NCBI RefSeq assembly: GCF_022843985.1 | Contig: NZ_JALHMP010000012.1 | Coordinates: forward strand, 35,471 to 99,470 | Direction: 5' to 3' | From: Phreatobacter sp. | GTDB lineage: Bacteria > Pseudomonadota > Alphaproteobacteria > Rhizobiales > Phreatobacteraceae | DNA: 64,000 nucleotides | Shown here: positions 53,236-64,000 of the stretch, in pieces | Layout of the letters: every line of letters begins with the position of its first letter | How positions within the stretch are numbered: the first letter of the stretch is position 1 | Notes under the pieces: generated by a model | Database searches by the model: none | Told to the model about the DNA's origin: nothing | Seen by the model: only the letters and a program-made list of their open reading frames with translations | Translations under genes and position numbers: made by a program

Positions 53236-53431
53236 GTGCGGCACGGCGGCGTGGCCGAGCCGCGCCAGCGACATGGCAGGCATTCGTCCACTCTGGTTCA
53301 GGACTTGCGTCGGTCCCAGCCGTGCAGCGGCATCAGGCCTTCGGCCCGAAAGCAGACCTTCCGCCGCCCGGCCTGCTTGCCGTTCAATGCTGCAGGCCGG
53401 ATCGGCCGGTCCGGTCATGGAGCAAAGCGAC

Positions 53432-55435
53432 GTGCAGGCAAGAGAATGGGACATCGGTACCGATATCGGCGGCACGTTCACCGATATCATTGCCGTCCGC
53501 AGCGGTGGCCATGAGACGCGGATCGCCAAGGTTCCCTCCCGCCCCGATGCGCCCGTCCAGGCGATGATGGAGGCGCTTACGGCCGTCGGTCTCGGACCCG
53601 ACGACGTCAGGCGCTTCGTCCATGGCACCACGCGCGTCACCAATGCCCTGGTCGAGGAGCGCCTGCCGAAGATGGCGCTGGTGGCCACTGCCGGGTTCGA
53701 GGACGTGCTGGAGATCGCCCGCTACCGCCGGCAGGAGCTCTACCGCCTCGACATTCCGCCGAAGGCGCCGCCGCTGGTGCCGCCGTCGCTGTGCTTCGGC
53801 ATCGTCGAGCGGGTCGACCATAGCGGCGCCGTGCTGACGCCTTTGGCGGACAGCGAGATCGAACGGCTGGTGACCTGGCTCAAGGCCAACGCGGTCGCCA
53901 GCGTCGCCATCTGCCTGCTGCATGCCTATGCCAATCCCGACCATGAAAAGCGCCTCGCCGAGCACCTCGCCGGCATCGTCCCGCATGTCTGTGTCTCGCA
54001 CGAGATCAATCCGGAGGCGCGCGAATATGAACGGGCCTCCTCGACGGCCTTCAATGCTGCGGCGATGCCCATCGCGGTGGAATATCTGACCGAACTGGAG
54101 GAGCGGCTGCCGATCGGCGCGGGGCTGCAGGTCTTCCACTCGGCGGGCGCCATGGTGCCCTTGCCGGCAGTCAAGCGGCGTCCGCTGGTCATGGCCATGT
54201 CCGGGCCGGCGGCTGGCGTTTCCGCCTCGGCGCGCATCGCCCGCGACCTCGCGCGCCCGCGCGTGCTGACCTTCGATATGGGCGGCACCACCACCGACGT
54301 GTGCCTCATCGTCGACGGCGCGGCGGAGATGACCGACACCCGCATGATGGGCGGGCGGCCGCTGCGCCAGCCGATGCTCGCGGTCCATTCCATCGGCGCG
54401 GGCGGCGGTTCCATCGTCGATCTGGGGCCGGGCGGCCTCTCGGTGGGCCCCAAGAGCGCCGGCGCCGTACCGGGCCCTGCCTGCTACGGCCGCGGCGGCA
54501 CGCGCGCCACCATCACAGACGCCAATGCCATCCTCGGCTATCTCGATCCCGAGGCGCTGCTCGGCGACACGATCCGGATCGACCTCGGCAAGGCGCGCGA
54601 CGCCGTCCAGCCCATCGCGGACAGGCTTGGCCTCGGCCTCGCCGAGACGGCGCTCGGCATCGTCAAGGTTGCCAACGCCACCATGGCGCGGGCCTTGCGG
54701 CGGGTGACCGTCGAGCGCGGCGTCGACGGGCGCGACTGCACGCTGCTCGCCTTCGGCGGCGGCGGGCCGATGCATGCCACCGGCCTTGCCGACATCTATG
54801 GCCTGCGGGAGATCATCGTGCCGGCGGCGTCGAGCGCCTTCTCGGCCCTCGGCTGCCTCACCGCCGATTTCAGCTTCCTGCAGCAGCGCACCGTGCGCAT
54901 GGCGCTGAAAGGACTGTCGGCCGAGGCCTTCGCGGCGCGGGTCGCCGAACTCGTCGCGGAGGCGCGCGATCCCCTCATCGCCAACGGCATCGCGGCGGAG
55001 GAGATCACCGTCGAGCCTGTCGCACTGATGCGCTATGCGGCGCAGAGCGATTCCATCCCCATCGCCTTTGCCGTGCCGCTTGACCCGACGCGGCTGGAGG
55101 CCGACTTCCACGCCCGCCACCACCAGCTCTTCGGCTATGCGACCGGTGAGGCCTGCGTCATCGAGGCGCTGCGGGTGAAGGCGACGAAGCCCTCGGAGAC
55201 GCCGTTCTCGCGTCCCGATGTCGGCCGGCCACAGGTCTCGGGCCGCAGCCGCTCCTGCATCTTCGGGCCGGAAGGGTCGGTCGAGACGCGCATCCTGCCG
55301 CGCGAGACCGTTTCGGGGATCACCACCGGCCCCGCCATCATCGAGGATGCCTGGTCCACCGTCATCGTGCCGCCGGGCTGGCAGGCGCGTCCCGACGACC
55401 TCGGCAATCTCTTCCTTACCCGGAGCGAGTCATGA
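53432..55435 (+). CDS. Hydantoinase/oxoprolinase subunit A (start GTG 53432 or ATG 53417)
   Basis: DIGGTFTD, HGTT..TNA, EYER.S, SGPAAG, DMGGTTTDV, SAGA.PGPACYGRGG...T.TDAN, AFGGGG..HA. Confidence 0.93.
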   Translation: MQAREWDIGTDIGGTFTDIIAVRSGGHETRIAKVPSRPDAPVQAMMEALTAVGLGPDDVRRFVHGTTRVTNALVEERLPKMALVATAGFEDVLEIARYRRQELYRLDIPPKAPPLVPPSLCFGIVERVDHSGAVLTPLADSEIERLVTWLKANAVASVAICLLHAYANPDHEKRLAEHLAGIVPHVCVSHEINPEAREYERASSTAFNAAAMPIAVEYLTELEERLPIGAGLQVFHSAGAMVPLPAVKRRPLVMAMSGPAAGVSASARIARDLARPRVLTFDMGGTTTDVCLIVDGAAEMTDTRMMGGRPLRQPMLAVHSIGAGGGSIVDLGPGGLSVGPKSAGAVPGPACYGRGGTRATITDANAILGYLDPEALLGDTIRIDLGKARDAVQPIADRLGLGLAETALGIVKVANATMARALRRVTVERGVDGRDCTLLAFGGGGPMHATGLADIYGLREIIVPAASSAFSALGCLTADFSFLQQRTVRMALKGLSAEAFAARVAELVAEARDPLIANGIAAEEITVEPVALMRYAAQSDSIPIAFAVPLDPTRLEADFHARHHQLFGYATGEACVIEALRVKATKPSETPFSRPDVGRPQVSGRSRSCIFGPEGSVETRILPRETVSGITTGPAIIEDAWSTVIVPPGWQARPDDLGNLFLTRSES

Positions 55436-57012
55436 GTGCGCTGGACCCCTTCGTGGTCGAGGTGATCCGCCACGGCCTGTCGGCCGCGGCCGAGGAGATG
55501 AGCCTCGTCATGACCCGCTCGGCCCGCTCGCCGCTGCTGCGCGAGGCGGGAGACCTTTCCTCCGCCATCACCGATGCTGAGGGTGGGCTGGTCGGCCAGG
55601 GGCGAGACATCCCGATCCATCTCGGCGCCATGGCCTATACGGTGAAGGAACTGCTGAAGGTGCGCCCTGCCTCCGGCATGAAGGAGGGCGACGCGATCAT
55701 CTACAATGTCGGCGCTCTCGGCGGAAACCATCTCAACGACGTCAAGATCGCCCGGCCCGTCTTCGTCGAGGGCCGCCTCATCGCCTTCGCGCTCAGCCTC
55801 GCCCACTGGCCCGATGTCGGCGGCACCTGGCCGGGCAGCTATCTCGCCAATGCCTTCGACACGTTCCAGGAGGCGATGCGCATCCCGCCGCTGACGATCG
55901 CCGACACCAATGGTCTCAACCGCTCGGTGCTCGAGCTGATCCTCGCCAATGTCCGCGACCCCGTCTCCTGCGAGGGCGACCTGATGGCGCAACTGGCGGC
56001 CACCACGGCGGCGGAGCGGCGCATCCGTGAGATGTGTGCCCAGTATGGCACCGAGACCTTCGTCGCGACCATGAGCCGCCTGCACGATCTCTCGGAGGCG
56101 GAGATGCGCGCGGCGCTGGCCGACCTGCCGGACGGTACCTATGAGGGCGAGGATTTCCTCGACGATGGCGGGCCGAACGGCGAGCCCGCGCGCATTCACG
56201 TGACAATCGAGATCCGCGGCGACGAGGCGACCTTCGATCTCTCGGGGTCGGCCGACCGGGTCGCCAATTTCTGCAACACGACGCCTTTCATCGCCCGCTC
56301 CGCGGTGGTCTATGCCGCGCGCATCATGAGCGGACGCGACATGCAGCAGAATGCCGGCGCGCTCAGGCCCATCACCATCATCACCCGGCCGGGATCCATC
56401 TTCGAACCGGGCTGGAACGCGGCAGTTGCCGCCGGCAACCACGAAACCTCCATGCGGGTGGTTGACGCCATCTTCCGTGCCATGGAGGCGGTCATTCCCG
56501 AGCGGCTGTCGGCCGGGGGGCCGGCGACGTCCGGCCTCCTCGCCTTCGCCGAGCCGATGCCCGACCAGTCCTGGCGCATGCTCTACGAGGTGCATGGCGG
56601 CGGCGAGGGCGCCCGTCACGACCGCGACGGCTGCCCGGCGACGCGCGTCCATCTCGCCAATACCTCGAACACGCCGGCCGAAATGATCGAGGCGAACTAT
56701 GCCATCCGCGTCGAGAAACAGGCGATCCGCCGTGATTCCGGCGGGAAAGGCCTGCACAAGGGTGGAGACGGCGTCATCCGCGCCTATCGGGTGCTGGCGC
56801 CGAGCCTGTGGCTCACCACCTGCGTCGAGCGCTTGGTCATGCCGACCTATGGCCTGAAGGGGGGCGGGGAGGGCAAGCCCTATACGATCACGCTGGAACG
56901 CGACGGTCGCACGGAACGCCTGTCGGGCAAGGCCAATCTGCTGCTCAAGGCCGGCGATCTCGTGACGCTGGAGGGCTGCGGTGGCGGCGGCTACGGGGTT
57001 TCCGCCGCATGA
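55432..57012 (+). CDS. Hydantoinase/oxoprolinase subunit B
   Basis: RSP.LRE..D.S, IPIHLG, GG.HLND, HW.DVGG..PGS, QE..RIPP, GG.GA, S.NTPAE, RDSGG.G..KGGDG..R; ATGA overlap. Confidence 0.93.
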   Translation: MSALDPFVVEVIRHGLSAAAEEMSLVMTRSARSPLLREAGDLSSAITDAEGGLVGQGRDIPIHLGAMAYTVKELLKVRPASGMKEGDAIIYNVGALGGNHLNDVKIARPVFVEGRLIAFALSLAHWPDVGGTWPGSYLANAFDTFQEAMRIPPLTIADTNGLNRSVLELILANVRDPVSCEGDLMAQLAATTAAERRIREMCAQYGTETFVATMSRLHDLSEAEMRAALADLPDGTYEGEDFLDDGGPNGEPARIHVTIEIRGDEATFDLSGSADRVANFCNTTPFIARSAVVYAARIMSGRDMQQNAGALRPITIITRPGSIFEPGWNAAVAAGNHETSMRVVDAIFRAMEAVIPERLSAGGPATSGLLAFAEPMPDQSWRMLYEVHGGGEGARHDRDGCPATRVHLANTSNTPAEMIEANYAIRVEKQAIRRDSGGKGLHKGGDGVIRAYRVLAPSLWLTTCVERLVMPTYGLKGGGEGKPYTITLERDGRTERLSGKANLLLKAGDLVTLEGCGGGGYGVSAA

Positions 57013-58658
57013 GCATCTGGCCGGCCGGCGTCGCCCGCACCATCGGCGCGCTGCCCGAGAGCCTCGGCGCGGCGCTCAGGGCCACCGCGGCGCGGCGGGG
57101 GGAGGCGCTGGCCATCGCCTTCTACGGGGCGGAAATCAGCTTTGCCGAACTCCTCGCGCGGGTGGAGCGGCTCGCGGCCCATCTCCAGCACGCCTGCGGC
57201 CTCGCACCCGGCGACCGCGCGCTGCTCGACATGCAGAATTCGCCGCATGCGATCATTGCCTACCAGGCCATCGCCCGGGCCGGCGGCGTGGTGGTGCCGG
57301 TCAATCCGATGTCCATGCCGGAGGAAATCGCCTATCTCGCGGAGGACAGCGGGGCCAGGGTCGCGCTGATCGGTGCCGAGCTGGTCGGCAGGTTCTCAGG
57401 GCTCGTGCCGGCGCCGCTGGCCCATGTGATCGTCGCGGCCTATGGCGACGAGATTCCGGCCGATACCCCGTTCCGCCTGCCACCGGTGATCGGCGAGAGC
57501 GTACTCCCCGAATGGCTGCAGCCGGGCTTTGTCGCCTGGAACGAGGCGCTGGCGGAGACGCGGCCGCCACGGCCCGATACCAGCCGTCCGGACGATCTCT
57601 GCGTCATGCCCTACACGTCCGGCACGACGGGCAAGCCGAAGGCCTGCCTGCACACCCACCACAGCGTGCTCTTTACCGCCTTCGTCCAGGCGCGCTGGTA
57701 CTTCTACGACGATGAAACCGTGCTCACCGGCTTCATGCCGATGTTCCATGTCGCCGGCATGCAGCTCTCGCTCAACGGCTGCGCCGCCTGCGGCGCGACG
57801 GTGGTCGTCATGGCCCGCTGGGACCGGGACCTCGTGGCGCCGCTGTTCAAGCGCTACGGGGTGACCTTGTGGAGCGCGGCGCCGACCATGGTGGTGGATG
57901 CACTCGCCGCAGACGGCTTCGACCAGGCCGCCTTTGCCAGGCTCAAGACTATCACCGGCGGCGGCGCGGCCATGCCTGCGGCGGTGGCGGCCGAGCTGAA
58001 GCGGCGGTGGAACCTCGCCTATGTCGAGGGCTATGGCCTGACCGAGACCATGTCGCCGAGCCATCTCAACCCCGTCGACCGGCCCAAGCCGCAATGCCTC
58101 GGCGTGCCGGTGCAGGAGACCCATGCGCGCATTATCGACCCTGGGAGCCTCGCCGTGCTGCCGCAGGGCGAGACCGGGGAGATCGTCATTGCCGGGCCAC
58201 AGGTGATGCGCGGCTACTGGAACCTGCCGGAGGCAACGGCGGAGGCCTTCGTCACGCTCGCGGGGCGGCGCTTCCTGCGCACCGGCGACCTCGCCCGCAT
58301 CGACGACGAGGGCTATTTCCACATGGTCGACCGCCTGAAACGGATGATCTCGGTTTCCGGCTTCAAGGTCTGGCCCTCGGAGGTCGAGGCGGTGCTCTAC
58401 CGCCATCCCGCCGTCCAGGAATGCTGCATCGTCTCGGCGCCCGACGCCTATCGCGGCGAGACGGTGAAGGCCCTGGTGGTCCGCCGGCCGGGGTGCGACC
58501 TGACGGCCGAGGAGCTGATTGCCTGGGCGCGGGAGGTGATGGCCGCCTACAAGGTGCCGCGGCTGGTCGCATTCGTCGACGCCTTGCCGCGCACCGCGTC
58601 CAACAAGCTCGACTGGCGGTCGTTGCAGGACGCCGCCTGGGCGACAGGCGCCGGGTGA
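57009..58658 (+). CDS. AMP-dependent acyl-CoA ligase (long-chain fatty-acid-CoA ligase-like)
   Basis: YTSGTTGKPK, EGYGLTET, RTGDL, DRLKRMI..SGFKVWP.EVE, LPRT.SNK; ATGA overlap. Confidence 0.93.
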   Translation: MSIWPAGVARTIGALPESLGAALRATAARRGEALAIAFYGAEISFAELLARVERLAAHLQHACGLAPGDRALLDMQNSPHAIIAYQAIARAGGVVVPVNPMSMPEEIAYLAEDSGARVALIGAELVGRFSGLVPAPLAHVIVAAYGDEIPADTPFRLPPVIGESVLPEWLQPGFVAWNEALAETRPPRPDTSRPDDLCVMPYTSGTTGKPKACLHTHHSVLFTAFVQARWYFYDDETVLTGFMPMFHVAGMQLSLNGCAACGATVVVMARWDRDLVAPLFKRYGVTLWSAAPTMVVDALAADGFDQAAFARLKTITGGGAAMPAAVAAELKRRWNLAYVEGYGLTETMSPSHLNPVDRPKPQCLGVPVQETHARIIDPGSLAVLPQGETGEIVIAGPQVMRGYWNLPEATAEAFVTLAGRRFLRTGDLARIDDEGYFHMVDRLKRMISVSGFKVWPSEVEAVLYRHPAVQECCIVSAPDAYRGETVKALVVRRPGCDLTAEELIAWAREVMAAYKVPRLVAFVDALPRTASNKLDWRSLQDAAWATGAG

Positions 58659-58755
58659 TCGCCGGCCTTGCGAGCCCCGCCGGCAGGGACCAGCATGCGG
58701 CCTGCATCTTGCCTGCGCGATCCATACCCCTTCGCATGCCGCCCGAGATTCCGAC

Positions 58756-60195
58756 ATGACCTCACCGTCGCTGACCGCCCTCGAAACCCGCATCCGCGAC
58801 GATCTCGCGCGGATCGCCCATCCCCGGGCGCCGTGGCTGACCCCGCGCGTCGCGCCGGACGGGTCGGCGGCGCTCGACGTGCTGGTGGTCGGGGCGGGGC
58901 AGTCCGGGGTGGTCACTGCCTTCGGCCTGAAACGGTCGCGGGTCGACAATGTGCTGGTCATCGACAAGGCCCCCTATGGCGAGGAGGGGCCCTGGGTGAC
59001 CTTCGCCCGGATGCAGACCCTGCGCAGCCCCAAGGATTTCACCGGGCCGGATCTCGACATTCCGAGCCTCACCTACCAGTCCTGGCACGAGGCCCGCTAC
59101 GGCGCCGACCATTGGCGGGCGCTGGACCTGATCACGCGCCAGGACTGGAACGACTACCTCCTCTTCATGCGCCGGGTGACGGAGATCCCCGTCGACAACG
59201 ACACCGAACTCCTGTCGCTGACCCAGGCCGGCGAGCTGGTCGCCGCGACGGTCCGGGGGCCCGGCGGCGAGCGCAGGCTCTACGCCCGCAAGGTGGTGCT
59301 GGCGACGGGGCAGGATTCGACCGGCCGCTGGTGGATGCCGGATTTCGTCGCGTCTCTGGCGCCGTCCCTGCGCGCCCATGCGGCCGATGCGATCGACTTC
59401 GCCGCGTTGAAGGGCAAGGTCGTGGCGGTGCTGGGCGCCGGCGCCTCGGCTTTCGACAATGCGGCGACGGCGCTCGAAGCCGGCGCGGCCTCGGTCCATC
59501 TCTTCTGCCGCCGCCTCGAACCGCAGGTGATCCAGCCCTATCGCTGGATCACCTTCCGCGGTTTCATGAAACACCTCGCCGATCTCGACGATTCCTGGCG
59601 CTGGCGGTTCATGAGCCGCGTCATGGGCCTGCGCGAGGGGTTCCCGCAGGCGACCTATGACCGCTGCGCCCGGCATCCCAACTTCCTGCTGCATACGGGT
59701 GCGCCCTGGACCGCGGCGCGGGAGGAGGCGGGCCGTGCCGTCGTCACCACCCCCCATGGTGACTTCGCCGCCGATTTCCTCATCTGCGGCACCGGCATCG
59801 CCATGGACTATGCGGCCAAGCCCGAGTTGGCCGCCTTCCACGACAATATCGCCACCTGGGGCGACCGCTACTTGCCCCCCGAGGACGAGCGCAGCGACCG
59901 CCTCGCCGCCTTCCCCTATCTCTCGCCGGATTACCAGTTCACCGAGAAGGTGACGGGGCGCACGCCCTGGATCGGCAATGTCCATCTCTTCTCGATCGCC
60001 TCGACCATGAGCTTCGGTCCCTCCGGCTCGTCGATCAACGCCATGACCACCGCGGTGCCGCGGCTTGTTGACGGGATCACCAAGGGCCTGTTCGCGGCGG
60101 ATGTGGAGGCGAACTGGGAGACTTTCCTCGCCTATGACGTGGCACAGGCGGAGGTGCGCGAGACAGTGCCGGGGCTCGGTATCGCGGCGGAGTAG
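58756..60195 (+). CDS. NAD(P)/FAD-dependent class B flavoprotein monooxygenase (HpyO-like)
   Basis: VVGAGQSG, ARMQTLRSPK..TGP, LATG, VLGAGASAFDNA..ALEAGA, ICGTG, YLSPDYQFTEK. Confidence 0.8.
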   Translation: MTSPSLTALETRIRDDLARIAHPRAPWLTPRVAPDGSAALDVLVVGAGQSGVVTAFGLKRSRVDNVLVIDKAPYGEEGPWVTFARMQTLRSPKDFTGPDLDIPSLTYQSWHEARYGADHWRALDLITRQDWNDYLLFMRRVTEIPVDNDTELLSLTQAGELVAATVRGPGGERRLYARKVVLATGQDSTGRWWMPDFVASLAPSLRAHAADAIDFAALKGKVVAVLGAGASAFDNAATALEAGAASVHLFCRRLEPQVIQPYRWITFRGFMKHLADLDDSWRWRFMSRVMGLREGFPQATYDRCARHPNFLLHTGAPWTAAREEAGRAVVTTPHGDFAADFLICGTGIAMDYAAKPELAAFHDNIATWGDRYLPPEDERSDRLAAFPYLSPDYQFTEKVTGRTPWIGNVHLFSIASTMSFGPSGSSINAMTTAVPRLVDGITKGLFAADVEANWETFLAYDVAQAEVRETVPGLGIAAE

Positions 60196-60222
60196 CCCGT
60201 TTCGTGGATCACCGACCTCATC

Positions 60223-60313
60223 GCGTCATGCCCGGCCTCGTGCCGGGAATCCACGACTTGACCACCGCATCATGAGAATTCGTGGATGCCCGGGCCAAGC
60301 CCGGGCATGACGC
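60223..60313. repeat. Rhizobiales REP/MITE-like palindromic element
   Basis: GCGTCATGCCCGGCCTCGTGCCGGGAATCCACG ... CGTGGATGCCCGGGCCAAGCCCGGGCATGACGC: imperfect long inverted repeat with internal hairpins, between convergent genes. Confidence 0.8.
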
Positions 60314-60361
60314 ATAGGTCTGCGGGAGTGCCGTGTGAGACGGGCACCGAAGGGACGAGGC

Positions 60362-62038
60362 TCAGCCCGCCGTCGCGGCTTCCCTCTGGCGGGCCGTGGC
60401 CGCTTCCGGATCGAAATGCGGGATGGCCGCGATGAGCTCGCGGGCATAGTCGGACGCCGGATCGGTGAACAGCGCCCCGCTCGGTCCCTGCTCGACGATC
60501 TGGCCCTTCTGCAGCACGATGGTGCGCTCGCACATCATGCGGACGACGTTGAGATCGTGGCTGACGAAGAGATAGGCGAGGCCCGTCTCCCGCCTGAGAC
60601 GGTCGAGGAGATGCAGGATCACCGCCTGGACCGACACGTCGAGGGCCGCCGTCGGCTCGTCGAGAACCAGCAGGCGGGGCTTCGCCGCGATGGCGCGGGC
60701 AATGCCAACCCGGGCCTTCTGGCCCCCGGAGAGCTGGTGGGGGAAACGGTCGAGGAACTCGGCGGGTAGGCCCACGCGGCGGGCGCAATCCTCGACCTGC
60801 CGGCGCAGTTCGCGGCTGTCCTGGACGCCGGCCAGAAGTTTCAGCGGATCGGCGATGCAGTCGAAGGCGGAGAAGCGCGGGTTGAGGCTGTCGCCGTGGT
60901 CCTGGAAGACGATCTGGATGTCCTTGCGGAATCGCGACCGGTAGAAGTCGCGCGAGGAGATCTTGCCGATGTCCTCGCCGTCGAAGCCGATGGTGCCGGC
61001 GGAGTGATCGAGCAGGCGGCAGACGAGGCGTGAGATGGTGCTCTTGCCCGAACCCGATTCCCCGACGAGGCCGAGGCTCTCGCCGGGCGCGAGGTCGAAG
61101 GAGACGTCGTCGACGCCGCGGAAGCCATTGTCGAAGGTCTTCACGAGGTTCGAGACGGTGAGCAGCGCTTCGGCGGGCCGCCGGAGCGACACGCGCGGCG
61201 CCGCGGGCGCTGGCTCGCCGGCATCGACCACAAGGCTGTCGACGGTGGAATGGCGGGTCGGCGAGGCGGCGACGAGGCGTTTCGTATAGGGGTGCCGCGG
61301 CGCACCGAAAAGGCTCGCGGGCACCGACTGTTCAACCACAAGGCCCTGTTCCATGACGGCGACGCGCTGGCAATATTGCGCGGCGAGGCCGAGGTCGTGG
61401 GTGATGAGGACCATCGCCATGCCGCGGCGGGCGGTGATCTCGGCGAGGAGGTCCATCACCGTCTTCTGCGTCGTGACGTCCAATCCGGTGGTGGGCTCGT
61501 CGGCGATGAGGAGGGCGGGTTCGCAGGCGATCGCCATGGCGATCATGACGCGCTGGCACATGCCACCCGACAATTCGTGCGGATAGGCGTCGAGGCGCTC
61601 CTCGGGATCGCGGATCAGCACGGCCTCGAGCAGTTTCAGTGCCTTGGCGCGGGCCTCCCGCGCCGACAGCGCCTCATGGGCGCGCAGCACGTCGGCGATC
61701 TGCAGACCAACCGTGCGGATGGGGTTCAGGGCTGCCCGCGGGTTCTGGAAGATCATCGACATGGCCGCCCCGCGCAGCGGCTGCAGCATGGAACGCGAGG
61801 CGCGGGTGATGTCCTGGCCGCGGAAGGTGATGCGGCCGTTGGTGATCCGTCCCGCCCGATCGAGGAGCTGCATCACCGAAAAGGCGGTGACGGACTTGCC
61901 GGAGCCGGATTCACCGACAATGCCCAGCGTCTCGCCGGCGTCGAGGCTGAGGGAGACGCCCTTCAGCGCCTCTACCAGGCCGTTACGGGTGGAGAAGGTG
62001 ACCTTGAGGTCGTCGATGGTGAGGAGCGGCTCCGTCAT
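60362..62038 (-). CDS. Dpp/Opp-type ABC transporter ATP-binding protein (two fused NBDs)
   Basis: GESGSGKS twice, [10 protein letters not shown] and [16 protein letters not shown] / LDEPTA. Confidence 0.95.
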
Positions 62039-62880
62039 GTCCGGATCCGCGGATCGAGGATGTCGCGCAGGCCGTCGCCGAGGAGGTTGAAGCAGAGGAC
62101 GGCGGCCATCAAGGCGGCGCCGGGGAACACGACAAGCCACCATTTGCCGGTGGTGATGAAGCGCGCGCCCTCGGCCACCATGATGCCCCATTCCGGCGTC
62201 GGCGCCTGCACGCCGAGGCCGAGGAACGAGAGGCCGGCAGCATTCAGGATGGCCCAGCCGAGGTTGAGCGAGATCTGCACCGCCATGGCCGGGAGGACAT
62301 TGGGCAGGAGGAAGAGCAGCACGACGCGTACATGGCTGTTACCGGAGGCGCGCGCCGCTTCCACCCAGCCGGAATTGCGGCGGACATTCACCTCGGCGCG
62401 GGCGAAGCGGATGTAGAAGGGCAGGTTGATGATGGCGGTGGCGTAGATGATGTTCTCGACCCGGTTGCCGAGCGCCGCCACCAGCGCCATGGCAAGGACG
62501 AAGAGCGGGAAGGCCATCAGCACGTCGACGAAGCGGCCGACCCAGCGGTCGAGGCGCCCGCCGGCATAGCCGCAGAAGGCGCCGATCATGGCGCCGAGGA
62601 CGAAGGAGATGCTCACCGCCGAGGCGGCGATGGCGAGGTCGAGCCGGGTCGCCACCAGCACCCGCGAGAAGACGTCGCGGCCGAGCTGGTCGGTGCCGAA
62701 CCAGTGGGCGGCGCTCGGCGGCTGCAGTGCCTGCGGCACGTTGGAGACGGTCGGGCCGTAGGGTGCGATCCAGGGCCCGACGATGGCGATGAGCACCAGC
62801 AGCGCCGCGCCGATGCCGGCGACGAGCGTCACCGGATTGCCCCTGAGGATGTAGCCGGTATGGCGGAGCGTGGCGCTCAT
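62035..62880 (-). CDS. ABC transporter permease (DppC-like)
   Basis: HWFGTDQLGRDVFSRV, YIRFARAE, LPNV, AGLSFLGLG...PTPEWG.MV. Confidence 0.95.
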   Translation of the reverse strand: MSATLRHTGYILRGNPVTLVAGIGAALLVLIAIVGPWIAPYGPTVSNVPQALQPPSAAHWFGTDQLGRDVFSRVLVATRLDLAIAASAVSISFVLGAMIGAFCGYAGGRLDRWVGRFVDVLMAFPLFVLAMALVAALGNRVENIIYATAIINLPFYIRFARAEVNVRRNSGWVEAARASGNSHVRVVLLFLLPNVLPAMAVQISLNLGWAILNAAGLSFLGLGVQAPTPEWGIMVAEGARFITTGKWWLVVFPGAALMAAVLCFNLLGDGLRDILDPRIRT

Positions 62881-63908
62881 TCAATCGAGACCCGGGGATC
62901 GGCGAGGCCGTAGAGCACGTCGATGGTGAGGTTCACCAGGACGAAGATGAAGGCCATCAGCAGGACGAAGCCCTGCACCGGCGCATAGTCGGAGGTCAGC
63001 AGGGCGTCGAGCGCGTAGGAGGCGACACCGGGCCAGGAGAAGACTTTCTCGACCAGAACGTTGGCGCCCAGCATGGTGGAGAAGACGATGCCCATGATGG
63101 TGATGACGGGCAGGAGCGCATTGCGCAAGGCATAGACCAGGACGACACGCCGCCGCGACAGGCCGAGGGCTTCGCCCGTGCGCACGAAGTCGCTGGTCAT
63201 GACCGCCAGCATGGCGGCGCGGGTCATGCGGGCGAGCGGCGCCAGGACGAAGAGGGCCATGGTCGCCGCCGGCAGGACGAGCTGGCTCGCCGCGGCGCGC
63301 CAGGATTCCCATTCGCCGGCGAGGGCCGCGTCGATGAGGATGAAGCCGGAGACGACCGGTGGCTGAGCCGCGAAGACGTCGAGCCGTCCCGTCGGGTCGG
63401 GGGCGATGCCGAGGATGTAGTAGAAGGCGTAGATCAGCAGCAGCCCGGACACGAAGGTCGGCACGCAGACGCCGAGCGAACACAGGAACCTCACCCCGTG
63501 GTCGATCAGGGAATTGGGCCTGAGCGCGGCGAGGATGCCGAGCGGCAGGGCTAGAGAGAGGGCGAAAAGCAGCGCCGTGAAGGTGAGTTCGAGCGAGGCC
63601 GGCAGACGGTTGATCAGGTCGGTCACCACCGGCTGGCCGGTATTCATCGAGCGGCCGAGATTGCCGGTGGCGATGTCCTTCAGATAGAGCAGCAATTGCT
63701 GCGGGATGGGCTTGTCGAGGCCCATCTGCTCCCGGATCATCTGGATTTCCGCCTGTCCGGCATTGGGGCCGGAGGCGAAGAAGACGGCCGGGTCGCCCGG
63801 CAGCACCCGCATCAGCAGGAAGGTGAAGACGATCACCCCGAAGAGCGCGGGAACGGAAGACAGGGCCCTCCGTCCCGCGCGCCTGGCGATGCTGGCTGCA
63901 AGGCTCAT
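62877..63908 (-). CDS. ABC transporter permease (DppB-like)
   Basis: LPGDP, GLDKP...Q, GNLGRS, RLPASLEL, RMTRA.ML, YALRNALLP, EKVFSWPG. Confidence 0.95.
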   Translation of the reverse strand: MSLAASIARRAGRRALSSVPALFGVIVFTFLLMRVLPGDPAVFFASGPNAGQAEIQMIREQMGLDKPIPQQLLLYLKDIATGNLGRSMNTGQPVVTDLINRLPASLELTFTALLFALSLALPLGILAALRPNSLIDHGVRFLCSLGVCVPTFVSGLLLIYAFYYILGIAPDPTGRLDVFAAQPPVVSGFILIDAALAGEWESWRAAASQLVLPAATMALFVLAPLARMTRAAMLAVMTSDFVRTGEALGLSRRRVVLVYALRNALLPVITIMGIVFSTMLGANVLVEKVFSWPGVASYALDALLTSDYAPVQGFVLLMAFIFVLVNLTIDVLYGLADPRVSIE

Positions 63909-63922
63909 GACCGGCGGGCTCG

Positions 63923-64000
63923 TCAGATCCGCTTCATGTCGCGGAAGTCGACCTGGCGGTGATAGCCGTAGGTATAGCCGTCGATGTTCTTGGGCATGAC
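63923..64000 (-). CDS. C-terminal end of the probable ABC substrate-binding protein (partial)
   Basis: VMPKNIDGYTYGYHRQVDFRDMKRI-stop directly upstream of the DppB-like gene. Confidence 0.7.
   Translation of the reverse strand, partial: VMPKNIDGYTYGYHRQVDFRDMKRI

Follow-up and report, generated by a model that had tools for sequence, protein, structure and literature searches.

The closest described relatives of the gene cluster considered here are the aga operons for agropinic and mannopinic acid on octopine-type Ti plasmids, the hydantoinase (hyu) clusters, the caprolactam pathway of Pseudomonas jessenii and the N-methylhydantoinase of creatinine catabolism. The cluster lies at the right end of a 64,000-nucleotide stretch of DNA from Phreatobacter sp. 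(positions 35471-99470 of contig C12, in a genome of 4.33 Mb and 53 contigs; hereafter the window) and comprises 11 genes in two convergent operons, four on the plus strand and seven on the minus strand. The plus-strand operon encodes the two subunits of an ATP-dependent cyclic-amide hydrolase (HyuA and HyuB), an acyl-coenzyme A (CoA) ligase and a flavoprotein of an unnamed family, while the minus-strand operon encodes a Dpp-type ATP-binding cassette (ABC) importer together with a short-chain dehydrogenase/reductase (SDR), an aminotransferase and an epimerase-like protein. We propose that the two operons probably form a single locus for the catabolism of an imported cyclic amide. The locus is best seen as an intact, conserved and uncharacterised variant that combines ATP-dependent HyuAB with the importer-flavoprotein-SDR module associated elsewhere with hyu clusters, an omega-type aminotransferase and an accessory CoA ligase. 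The parts and the logic of the locus have clear precedents.

Comparison with described systems

Lyi, Jafri and Winans are said to have suggested in 1999 that AgaFG opens the lactam of agropinic acid. The aga region (octopine-type Ti plasmid record NC_002377.1, positions 77313-87913) and the Phreatobacter locus share an architecture, in which a Dpp-type importer (agaDCBA) with a family-5 binding protein, two permeases and a fused ATPase adjoins an operon that holds a flavoprotein oxidoreductase and a hydantoinase A/B pair. Orthology does not extend along with it, however. The proteins are 27-45% identical (HyuA 36%, HyuB 30%, binding protein 27%, ATPase 45%), which is the level of paralogues, AgaG falls outside the clade of HyuB orthologues, and AgaE is a DAO-type FAD oxidoreductase with no BLAST match to the class-B two-Rossmann flavoprotein of the window. 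The aga unit also has neither a CoA ligase nor an aminotransferase, and its operons are divergent where those of the window converge.

In the hyu clusters, for which a hyuC-racemase-hyuH arrangement has been described in Bradyrhizobium, the natural role and substrate of the hydantoinases are unclear (PMC3546935). Orthologues of the window flavoprotein (60-63% identity), SDR (64-72%) and binding protein (57-60%) stand directly beside hyuC, racemase and hyuH genes in Bradyrhizobium, Variovorax, Chelatococcus and the genome G401 discussed below, and the inferred chemistry, the opening of a cyclic ureide ring, would be common to both. The window locus differs in that hyuH, hyuC and the racemase gene are absent from it and the ATP-dependent HyuAB is present instead; homologues of these three genes lie on other contigs of the same genome. 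The statement in a first-pass annotation of the window that the combination matches no recognised pathway was therefore too strong, since the aga operons follow the same logic and the importer-flavoprotein-SDR module sits inside hyu clusters elsewhere.

The caprolactam pathway of P. jessenii relies on CapAB and an omega-transaminase (PMC8453981). CapA carries the phosphate-1 motif DxGGTxTD, the phosphate-2 motif DxGGT and the adenosine motif GxxPGP, CapB has an Asp-His-Asp-His metal site, and mutating residues of the ATP motifs or the metal ligands abolishes activity (PMC8453981). The window locus shares the two-subunit ATP-dependent lactamase type with identical ATP motifs and the same metal site, and a class-III aminotransferase and CoA activation are likewise available downstream. 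It differs in widely missing the equivalog cut-offs, in adding a Dpp-type importer and a class-B flavoprotein, and in its other genomic partners. The creatinine-catabolism N-methylhydantoinase (Protein Data Bank (PDB) 7hk5) is a fused single chain of about one-third identity, and creatinine deaminase, N-carbamoylsarcosine amidase and sarcosine oxidase are all missing from the window locus. Literature searches for this gene combination returned nothing, or only the caprolactam/molinate route.

The HyuAB hydrolase

The hyuA gene (53432-55435, plus strand) encodes a 667-residue ATP-binding (ASKHA) subunit and starts at a GTG codon with a GGAG 10 nt upstream, an alternative in-frame ATG lying at 53417. 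Its stop codon overlaps the start of hyuB (55432-57012, plus strand; 526 residues), the metal-binding hydrolytic subunit, by a 4-nt ATGA. HyuA matches the Pfam domains Hydant_A_N, Hydantoinase_A and Hydant_A_C, and HyuB matches Hydantoinase_B (E 6e-166), so that A-type and B-type domains occur in adjacent genes as in the CapAB-type family. The ATP motifs of HyuA are intact (DIGGTFTD at residue 11, DMGGT at 282 and GAVPGP at 344), and in HyuB the residues D41, H100, D103 and H125 occupy the aligned positions of D41, H99, D102 and H124, the metal ligands of CapB. HyuAB is thus predicted from its sequence to be an intact ATP-dependent cyclic-amide hydrolase of the caprolactamase/N-methylhydantoinase family.

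Among solved structures, HyuA matches N-methylhydantoinase 7hk5 (E 1.6e-103) and caprolactamase 6yra_A (E 2e-92) best, and 7hk5 gives the highest score for both subunits (351 and 226 bits). N-methylhydantoinase, caprolactamase and AgaF/AgaG are all about 30-36% identical to HyuAB, and the two subunits stay below the cut-off of 1000 bits set for the NCBIfam equivalogs CapA and CapB (NF050156 and NF050157), scoring 431 and 238. By these scores, HyuAB is not an equivalog of any characterised member.

Carboxylation, which the first-pass annotation had listed among the known reactions of A/B pairs, is unlikely because the carboxylase gamma subunit is absent from the locus, where the ATGA overlap of hyuB with the CoA ligase gene leaves no room for one. 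With the acetone/acetophenone carboxylase (Apc) models, whose cut-offs are 1250-1500 bits, the scores are 94-228 bits, and acetone carboxylase matches HyuB at only E 7e-9.

Four further HyuAB pairs are encoded on contigs C3, C6, C7 and C8 (loci L002-L005), and the genome also holds a homologue of PxpA for ordinary disposal of 5-oxoproline. The pair on C6 lies about 6 kb from this PxpA homologue (C6:75192-75911), and the pair on C3 has close relatives in Roseomonas and Acetobacteraceae (L048, L049), where HyuAB is encoded 6 kb away from a flavoprotein homologue.

The class-B-like flavoprotein

The flavoprotein gene (58756-60195, plus strand) encodes 479 residues and begins 97 nt after the CoA ligase gene. 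Its product carries two dinucleotide-binding motifs, GAGQSG at residue 46 and GAGASA at residue 227, and matches Pyr_redox_3, NAD_binding_9 and Lys_Orn_oxgnase above the Pfam cut-offs. By sequence, no solved structure is close to it, the best match being 4usr (E 2e-4). An AlphaFold (AF2) model built from 30 homologues (mean predicted local distance difference test score, pLDDT, 88) was compared with solved structures. Foldseek placed KtzI, PvdA, DesB and SidA at the top (E 6e-20, TM-score 0.63-0.72, 14-18% identity), and VIA-align gave a tie at Z 27.4 between DesB and SMFMO, the type II flavin-containing monooxygenase (FMO) of Stenotrophomonas, with 321-373 residues aligned. The two dinucleotide motifs and the modelled fold are those of a class-B enzyme, of the FMO / N-hydroxylating monooxygenase type, and the protein is likely a monooxygenase.

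The flavoprotein shares with SidA, PvdA, KtzI, DesB and SMFMO the fold, the two Rossmann motifs and the Lys_Orn_oxgnase match, but is only 14-19% identical to them. The setting is also different, being catabolic and importer-linked in the window, while that of the N-hydroxylating monooxygenases is siderophore biosynthesis. Its own family has more than 5000 detectable homologues, which bear only generic names in public sources, including Protein Atlas, and no characterised member of the family was found in those sources.

The CoA ligase, importer and accessory enzymes

The CoA ligase gene (57009-58658, plus strand) overlaps hyuB by an ATGA and encodes a 549-residue member of the ANL superfamily with the Pfam domains AMP-binding and AMP-binding_C. 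It scores 733 bits with NCBIfam PRK08314 (cut-off 705), and its adenylation motifs SGTTGKPK, GYGLTE, TGDL and RLKRMI are intact. The positions and domains of the open reading frames (ORFs) agree with the first-pass account of this part of the window, in which hyuA, hyuB and the CoA ligase gene are coupled by ATGA overlaps, the flavoprotein gene follows and an ABC importer converges on them.

On the minus strand, the importer genes comprise a fused DppD/DppF-type ABC ATPase (60362-62038; 558 residues), a DppC-type permease (62035-62880; 281 residues), a DppB-type permease (62877-63908; 343 residues) and a family-5 solute-binding protein, of which only the last 25 codons and the stop codon fall in the final 78 nt of the window (63923-64000). 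The ATPase start was corrected from that of the longest ORF (62191) to 62038, where it forms an ATGA overlap with the dppC stop; dppB and dppC overlap by 4 nt. In Pfam, the ATPase has two ABC_tran domains and oligo_HPY, DppC has BPD_transp_1 and OppC_N, DppB has BPD_transp_1 and BPD_transp_1_N, and the complete binding protein (L006:1394-3208 = C12:99393-101207) matches SBP_bac_5 (E 7e-79). This is the full architecture of a Dpp/Opp importer, and none of its proteins reaches the NCBIfam cut-off of the DppA, GsiB, NikA or CntA equivalogs. Among solved structures, the binding protein is closest to AgaA, which binds agropinic acid (6hlx, E 9e-36), and the ATPase resembles the fused AgaD-type ATPase of the Ti plasmid, as noted above. 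Every locus that has the importer includes a DppC orthologue, at 75-83% identity. A binding protein with 47% identity on a Rhizobium K84 plasmid sits with luciferase-like monooxygenases rather than HyuAB. A further plasmid match (H62) was considered as an AgaA and rejected, as it belongs to an unrelated peptide importer beside lysA and dapF.

The minus-strand operon extends the island by about 5 kb past the end of the window, so the first-pass extent was right for the genes within the window and too short as a whole. Beyond the binding protein follow an SDR gene (L006:3222-3983, minus), a class-III aminotransferase gene that overlaps it by 1 nt (L006:3983-5353, minus) and a gene for an epimerase-like extended SDR of the NAD-epimerase/dehydratase family (L006:5440-6477, minus). 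With the NCBIfam model of the glucose 1-dehydrogenase subfamily, the SDR scores 229.5, above the cut-off of 215. An assignment of the aminotransferase as an alpha-amino-epsilon-caprolactam racemase was rejected, since 2zuk ranks far below ordinary omega-transaminases. An M20 peptidase encoded 7 kb beyond the operon was likewise rejected as a missing carbamoylase, as it is not orthologous to the M20 genes of related clusters.

The locus is bordered on the left by the housekeeping gene ilvD (NCBIfam, 1166 bits) and on the right by an Hsp70-like gene for a 1030-residue protein (L006:6493-9585, minus = C12:104492-107584), which follows the epimerase-like gene on the same strand. The sole Pfam match of its product is a C-terminal Hsp70/actin-like ATPase domain at residues ~746-1020, and the gene is kept at the same position in Phreatobacter-like contigs (cluster c21).

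The two operons are separated by a convergent spacer of 166 nt. Within it lies a REP-like pair of hairpins (60223-60313) that probably ends the transcripts of both operons. The pair forms an inverted repeat with 37-nt arms, 84% complementary, each arm containing its own GC-rich hairpin of 9-10 bp with the core CATGCCCGG-N5-9-CCGGGCAT. The motif occurs in at least 61 copies in the genome, often paired about 60 nt apart. A terminator scan found no T-tract terminator in the spacer, and a promoter and terminator scan of the locus gave nothing above chance.

Conservation of the gene neighbourhood

We collected 63 contigs with a homologue of the flavoprotein and scored 62 of them, 10 Phreatobacter-like and 52 others. 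The gene order is repeated in the ten Phreatobacter-like contigs at 86-99% protein identity, and parts of it recur in other families; the order is more than chance. Among the contigs of this survey (L007, L008, L011), metagenome-assembled genomes labelled Archangium gephyra and Asaia bogorensis carry contigs that are 92-99% protein-identical to the Phreatobacter-like locus.

In the 52 other loci, the most frequent partners of the flavoprotein are the orthologous importer (17 loci; binding protein 54-73% and DppC 75-89% identical), the SDR (14 loci; 58-80%) and the epimerase-like gene (13 loci). Enzymes of hydantoin metabolism come next, with a CN-hydrolase of the D-carbamoylase type in 11 loci and a dihydropyrimidinase/D-hydantoinase and a hydantoin racemase in 9 each, and a flavin reductase is found in 7. 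The partner dihydropyrimidinase scores 762 bits against the cut-off of 647 for NCBIfam PRK13404, and the CN-hydrolase matches the solved N-carbamoyl-D-amino-acid hydrolase PDB 6lei (E 1e-120). A HyuB orthologue is present in 3 of the 52. The closest partners of the flavoprotein are thus the importer and the SDR, not HyuAB; the linkage to HyuAB appears in at least four separate subclades of the flavoprotein tree.

All components occur together in one further genome, G401, as a single co-directional run. It begins with HyuA (72%), HyuB (74%), a class-III aminotransferase, the CoA ligase (58%), a D-carbamoylase, a flavin reductase and a racemase, and continues with a dihydropyrimidinase, the epimerase-like protein, the SDR, the flavoprotein (62%), the binding protein (58%) and DppBCDF. 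The record (L027) is titled Frankia sp. RB7, and its genes are Bradyrhizobium-like. Mismatched record titles of this kind, including those of the metagenome-assembled genomes above, are likely binning or labelling errors.

The neighbourhoods were also read from the side of HyuB, which has matches of 54-57% identity in 14 of 400 sampled alphaproteobacterial species. A HyuB tree was built from these 14 species matches, the contig matches, the paralogues of the window genome and AgaG. In it, the orthologues of at least 54% identity form a clade with a Shimodaira-Hasegawa-like approximate likelihood ratio (SH-aLRT) of 100, and the four paralogues from the same genome, like AgaG, fall outside it. 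Four contexts are found in the clade. The first is the window type, with the orthologous importer and flavoprotein, also seen in G401 and L022. In the second (G370), HyuA-HyuB-cupin converges on flavoprotein-DppDF-C-B-binding protein-M20 peptidase. The third, in Tistrella pTM3 and three related genomes, reads beta-keto-acid cleavage enzyme-binding protein-DppBCDF-GntR-aminotransferase (63%)-HyuA-HyuB; at a distance of 2-4 kb these loci also carry the CoA ligase (54%) and an SDR, and they lack the flavoprotein. The fourth is an eight-member sister clade; in 6 of 7 loci there (L087-L091 and L095, from genomes G267, G104, G164, G097 and G129), HyuA-HyuB-SDR is followed by a CoxM-like FAD subunit and a molybdopterin large subunit, and an IclR regulator accompanies the operon.

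Molybdenum (Mo) hydroxylases of the xanthine-dehydrogenase family convert N-heterocycles to their lactam tautomers. All contexts of the HyuAB clade therefore point to N-heterocycle catabolism. The sister-clade operon apparently encodes a separate, uncharacterised pathway that hydroxylates N-heterocycles and opens their rings. In Tistrella mobilis pTM3, the gene for the beta-keto-acid cleavage enzyme (BKACE, formerly DUF849; L096:6413-7456) heads the orthologous importer operon, which hints at a beta-amino or beta-keto acid intermediate and would fit a beta-amino acid released from a ring of the dihydropyrimidine type. Close to the Tistrella cluster there are also a gamma-glutamyltranspeptidase gene and a thiolase-like gene.

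Across lineages, the aminotransferase and the flavoprotein tend to replace each other, with only the former in Tistrella and only the latter in G370, L008 and L010, and the two may be alternative routes for the same nitrogen. Among the 400 sampled Alphaproteobacteria, G370 is the only genome besides that of the window with both the flavoprotein and HyuB, too few for statistics.

The first-pass annotation had proposed import, ring opening, CoA activation and oxygenation of an N-heterocycle or lactam, with co-occurrence analysis among the checks. The neighbours of the HyuAB clade prove to be co-conserved in several lineages (importer, flavoprotein, aminotransferase, CoA ligase or Mo hydroxylase), contrary to the lack of co-conservation that the annotation had named as refuting evidence, and this leaves the catabolism of an N-heterocycle or lactam as the best reading. 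The weaker parts of that proposal are the CoA ligase, as the least conserved member, and the flavoprotein, which is tied to the importer and SDR rather than HyuAB.

A proposed pathway

The gene content of the locus, its intact catalytic motifs and its co-conservation are observed directly, and from the genes we infer the reactions, their order and the substrate. The Dpp/Opp-type importer, with a binding protein most similar to AgaA, the lactam-opine receptor, would bring the compound into the cell. HyuAB would then spend ATP to open the ring; if it works as CapAB does, HyuA would activate the iminol tautomer and the metal site of HyuB would hydrolyse it. The released amino or N-carbamoyl acid would pass to the class-III aminotransferase, to the class-B flavoprotein or to both, where its nitrogen may be lost or oxidised, the flavoprotein step being a putative oxygenation of nitrogen or another heteroatom. 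The SDR enzymes may adjust a hydroxyl or keto group, and the acyl-CoA ligase would make a CoA ester through which the carbon skeleton could enter CoA-dependent metabolism.

As to the substrate, a substituted hydantoin- or dihydropyrimidine-like cyclic ureide ranks first, an opine-type lactam second and a plain omega-lactam third. Two points favour the cyclic ureide, the linkage to hyu genes and the rank of N-methylhydantoinase as the best solved relative, and it is a plausible candidate held at somewhat less than even confidence. HyuAB would in that case take the place of the metal-dependent D-hydantoinase that accompanies the importer-flavoprotein-SDR module in other genera. An N-substituted opine-type lactam comes second because of the likeness to AgaA and the aga architecture, and is a possible substrate, clearly less probable than the ureide. 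Biotin, dihydrouridine, a siderophore lactam and a diketopiperazine are further conceivable substrates on general grounds. In the window genome, D-carbamoylase-like genes are found on other contigs, at C11:27526-28452 (beside a family-5 binding protein) and C1:93576-94493. At a second cyclic-ureide locus (C4:91518-99700), the genes for a dihydropyrimidinase homologue (52%) and a hydantoin racemase (73%) are divergent, and a further Dpp-type ABC system follows the former.

Several observations weigh against a single catabolic locus of this kind. The absence of a carbamoylase from the locus is the main weakness of the ureide assignment. The two operons are convergent and are therefore not co-transcribed, and the 11 genes include no regulator of their own. 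The CoA ligase is the least conserved member, being missing from the Phreatobacter-like relatives L008, L010 and L011 (92% identity), where HyuB directly abuts the flavoprotein. Among the 52 other flavoprotein loci, the CoA ligase and the aminotransferase each occur only once, and 31 of 61 rows in the flavoprotein tree have no partner gene within 10 kb. CoA ligase orthologues (54-58%) do lie near HyuAB in G401 and the Tistrella-like genomes. The fold of the flavoprotein is also near that of YpdA-type bacillithiol-disulfide reductase (Z 25.8), making a reductase or dehydrogenase role possible, and the binding protein is no more than 27% identical to AgaA.

Alternative explanations

The alternative that survives best is an aga-like catabolism of an opine-type lactam, with an N-substituted pyroglutamate as substrate, for example an Amadori or opine compound in lactamised form. 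HyuAB would delactamise it, the flavoprotein would cleave or oxidise the secondary amine, and the SDR and epimerase-like enzyme would handle the sugar or polyol moiety. AgaA is the best solved relative of the binding protein, the aga region combines a fused-ATPase Dpp-type importer with an FAD oxidoreductase and hydantoinase A/B, the SDR scores above the glucose 1-dehydrogenase cut-off, and the operon includes an epimerase/dehydratase-family gene. These likenesses are set against identities to the Aga proteins at the level of paralogues, the place of AgaG outside the HyuB orthologue clade and a flavoprotein family different from that of AgaE. In other loci, the partners that recur belong to hydantoin rather than sugar metabolism. 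We consider this explanation unlikely as a whole.

A plain omega-lactam of the caprolactam or valerolactam type is improbable. Here, a lactamase would release an omega-amino acid, which a class-III transaminase would convert to a semialdehyde and further steps to an acid and a CoA ester. CapA and CapB are indeed the best NCBIfam models for the pair, a DIPIHLG stretch and a Tyr are common to HyuB and CapB in the alignment, the aminotransferase is of the omega-transaminase type with a 63% orthologue directly preceding HyuAB in Tistrella, and a CoA ligase is present; yet the CapA and CapB scores lie far under the equivalog cut-off, and the locus has no aldehyde dehydrogenase. Small lactams would also leave the peptide/opine-type importer, the flavoprotein and the link to D-hydantoinase, carbamoylase and racemase unexplained.

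It is less probable still that HyuAB is a plain 5-oxoprolinase that salvages imported gamma-glutamyl or pyroglutamyl peptides, with the other genes as bystanders. The HyuAB family does include 5-oxoprolinases, the ATPase resembles GsiA and YejF, and gamma-glutamyltranspeptidase genes occur near the Tistrella cluster and some flavoprotein homologues, but the Gsi and YejF scores lie under their cut-offs, the genome has PxpA and four other HyuAB pairs, and the sister clade is operonic with a Mo hydroxylase. The presence of PxpA and the co-conservation of the neighbours across families argue against HyuAB as a stand-alone 5-oxoprolinase, so far as gene content can indicate.

Two unrelated operons that happen to abut, a HyuAB-ligase-flavoprotein unit and a peptide importer, are the least credible explanation, for which the convergent orientation, the REP pair between them, the lack of a shared regulator and the half of flavoprotein homologues without these neighbours would speak, but importer orthologues (binding protein 55-60%, DppC 75-83%) occur beside the flavoprotein, HyuAB or both in at least six distinct lineages and in varied orientations, including co-directional ones.

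Implications for the flavoprotein family and for hyu clusters

The reading of the locus as a catabolic unit for an imported cyclic amide leads to a broader and more speculative idea about the flavoprotein. The unnamed class-B family might act as a catabolic N-oxygenase on the amine or amino acid freed from opened cyclic ureides or lactams, the importer-flavoprotein-SDR module might mark the natural substrate of the D-hydantoinase/D-carbamoylase (hyu) clusters, and the metal hydantoinase might have been swapped for ATP-driven HyuAB in this lineage. We regard this idea as doubtful. If true, it would give the SidA/PvdA-type fold its first catabolic role, as an oxidative alternative to transamination.

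Biocatalysis makes wide use of HyuAB-type enzymes and D-hydantoinases, whose natural substrates are mostly obscure. The locus ties an ATP-dependent ring opener, an orthologous importer and an uncharacterised class-B flavoprotein, found elsewhere inside hyu clusters, into one co-conserved network. Its binding protein offers a direct handle on the natural compound, and hence on the role of a flavoprotein family with thousands of unnamed members. The pathway would add a route for the recycling of N-heterocycles in oligotrophic freshwater and soil Alphaproteobacteria.

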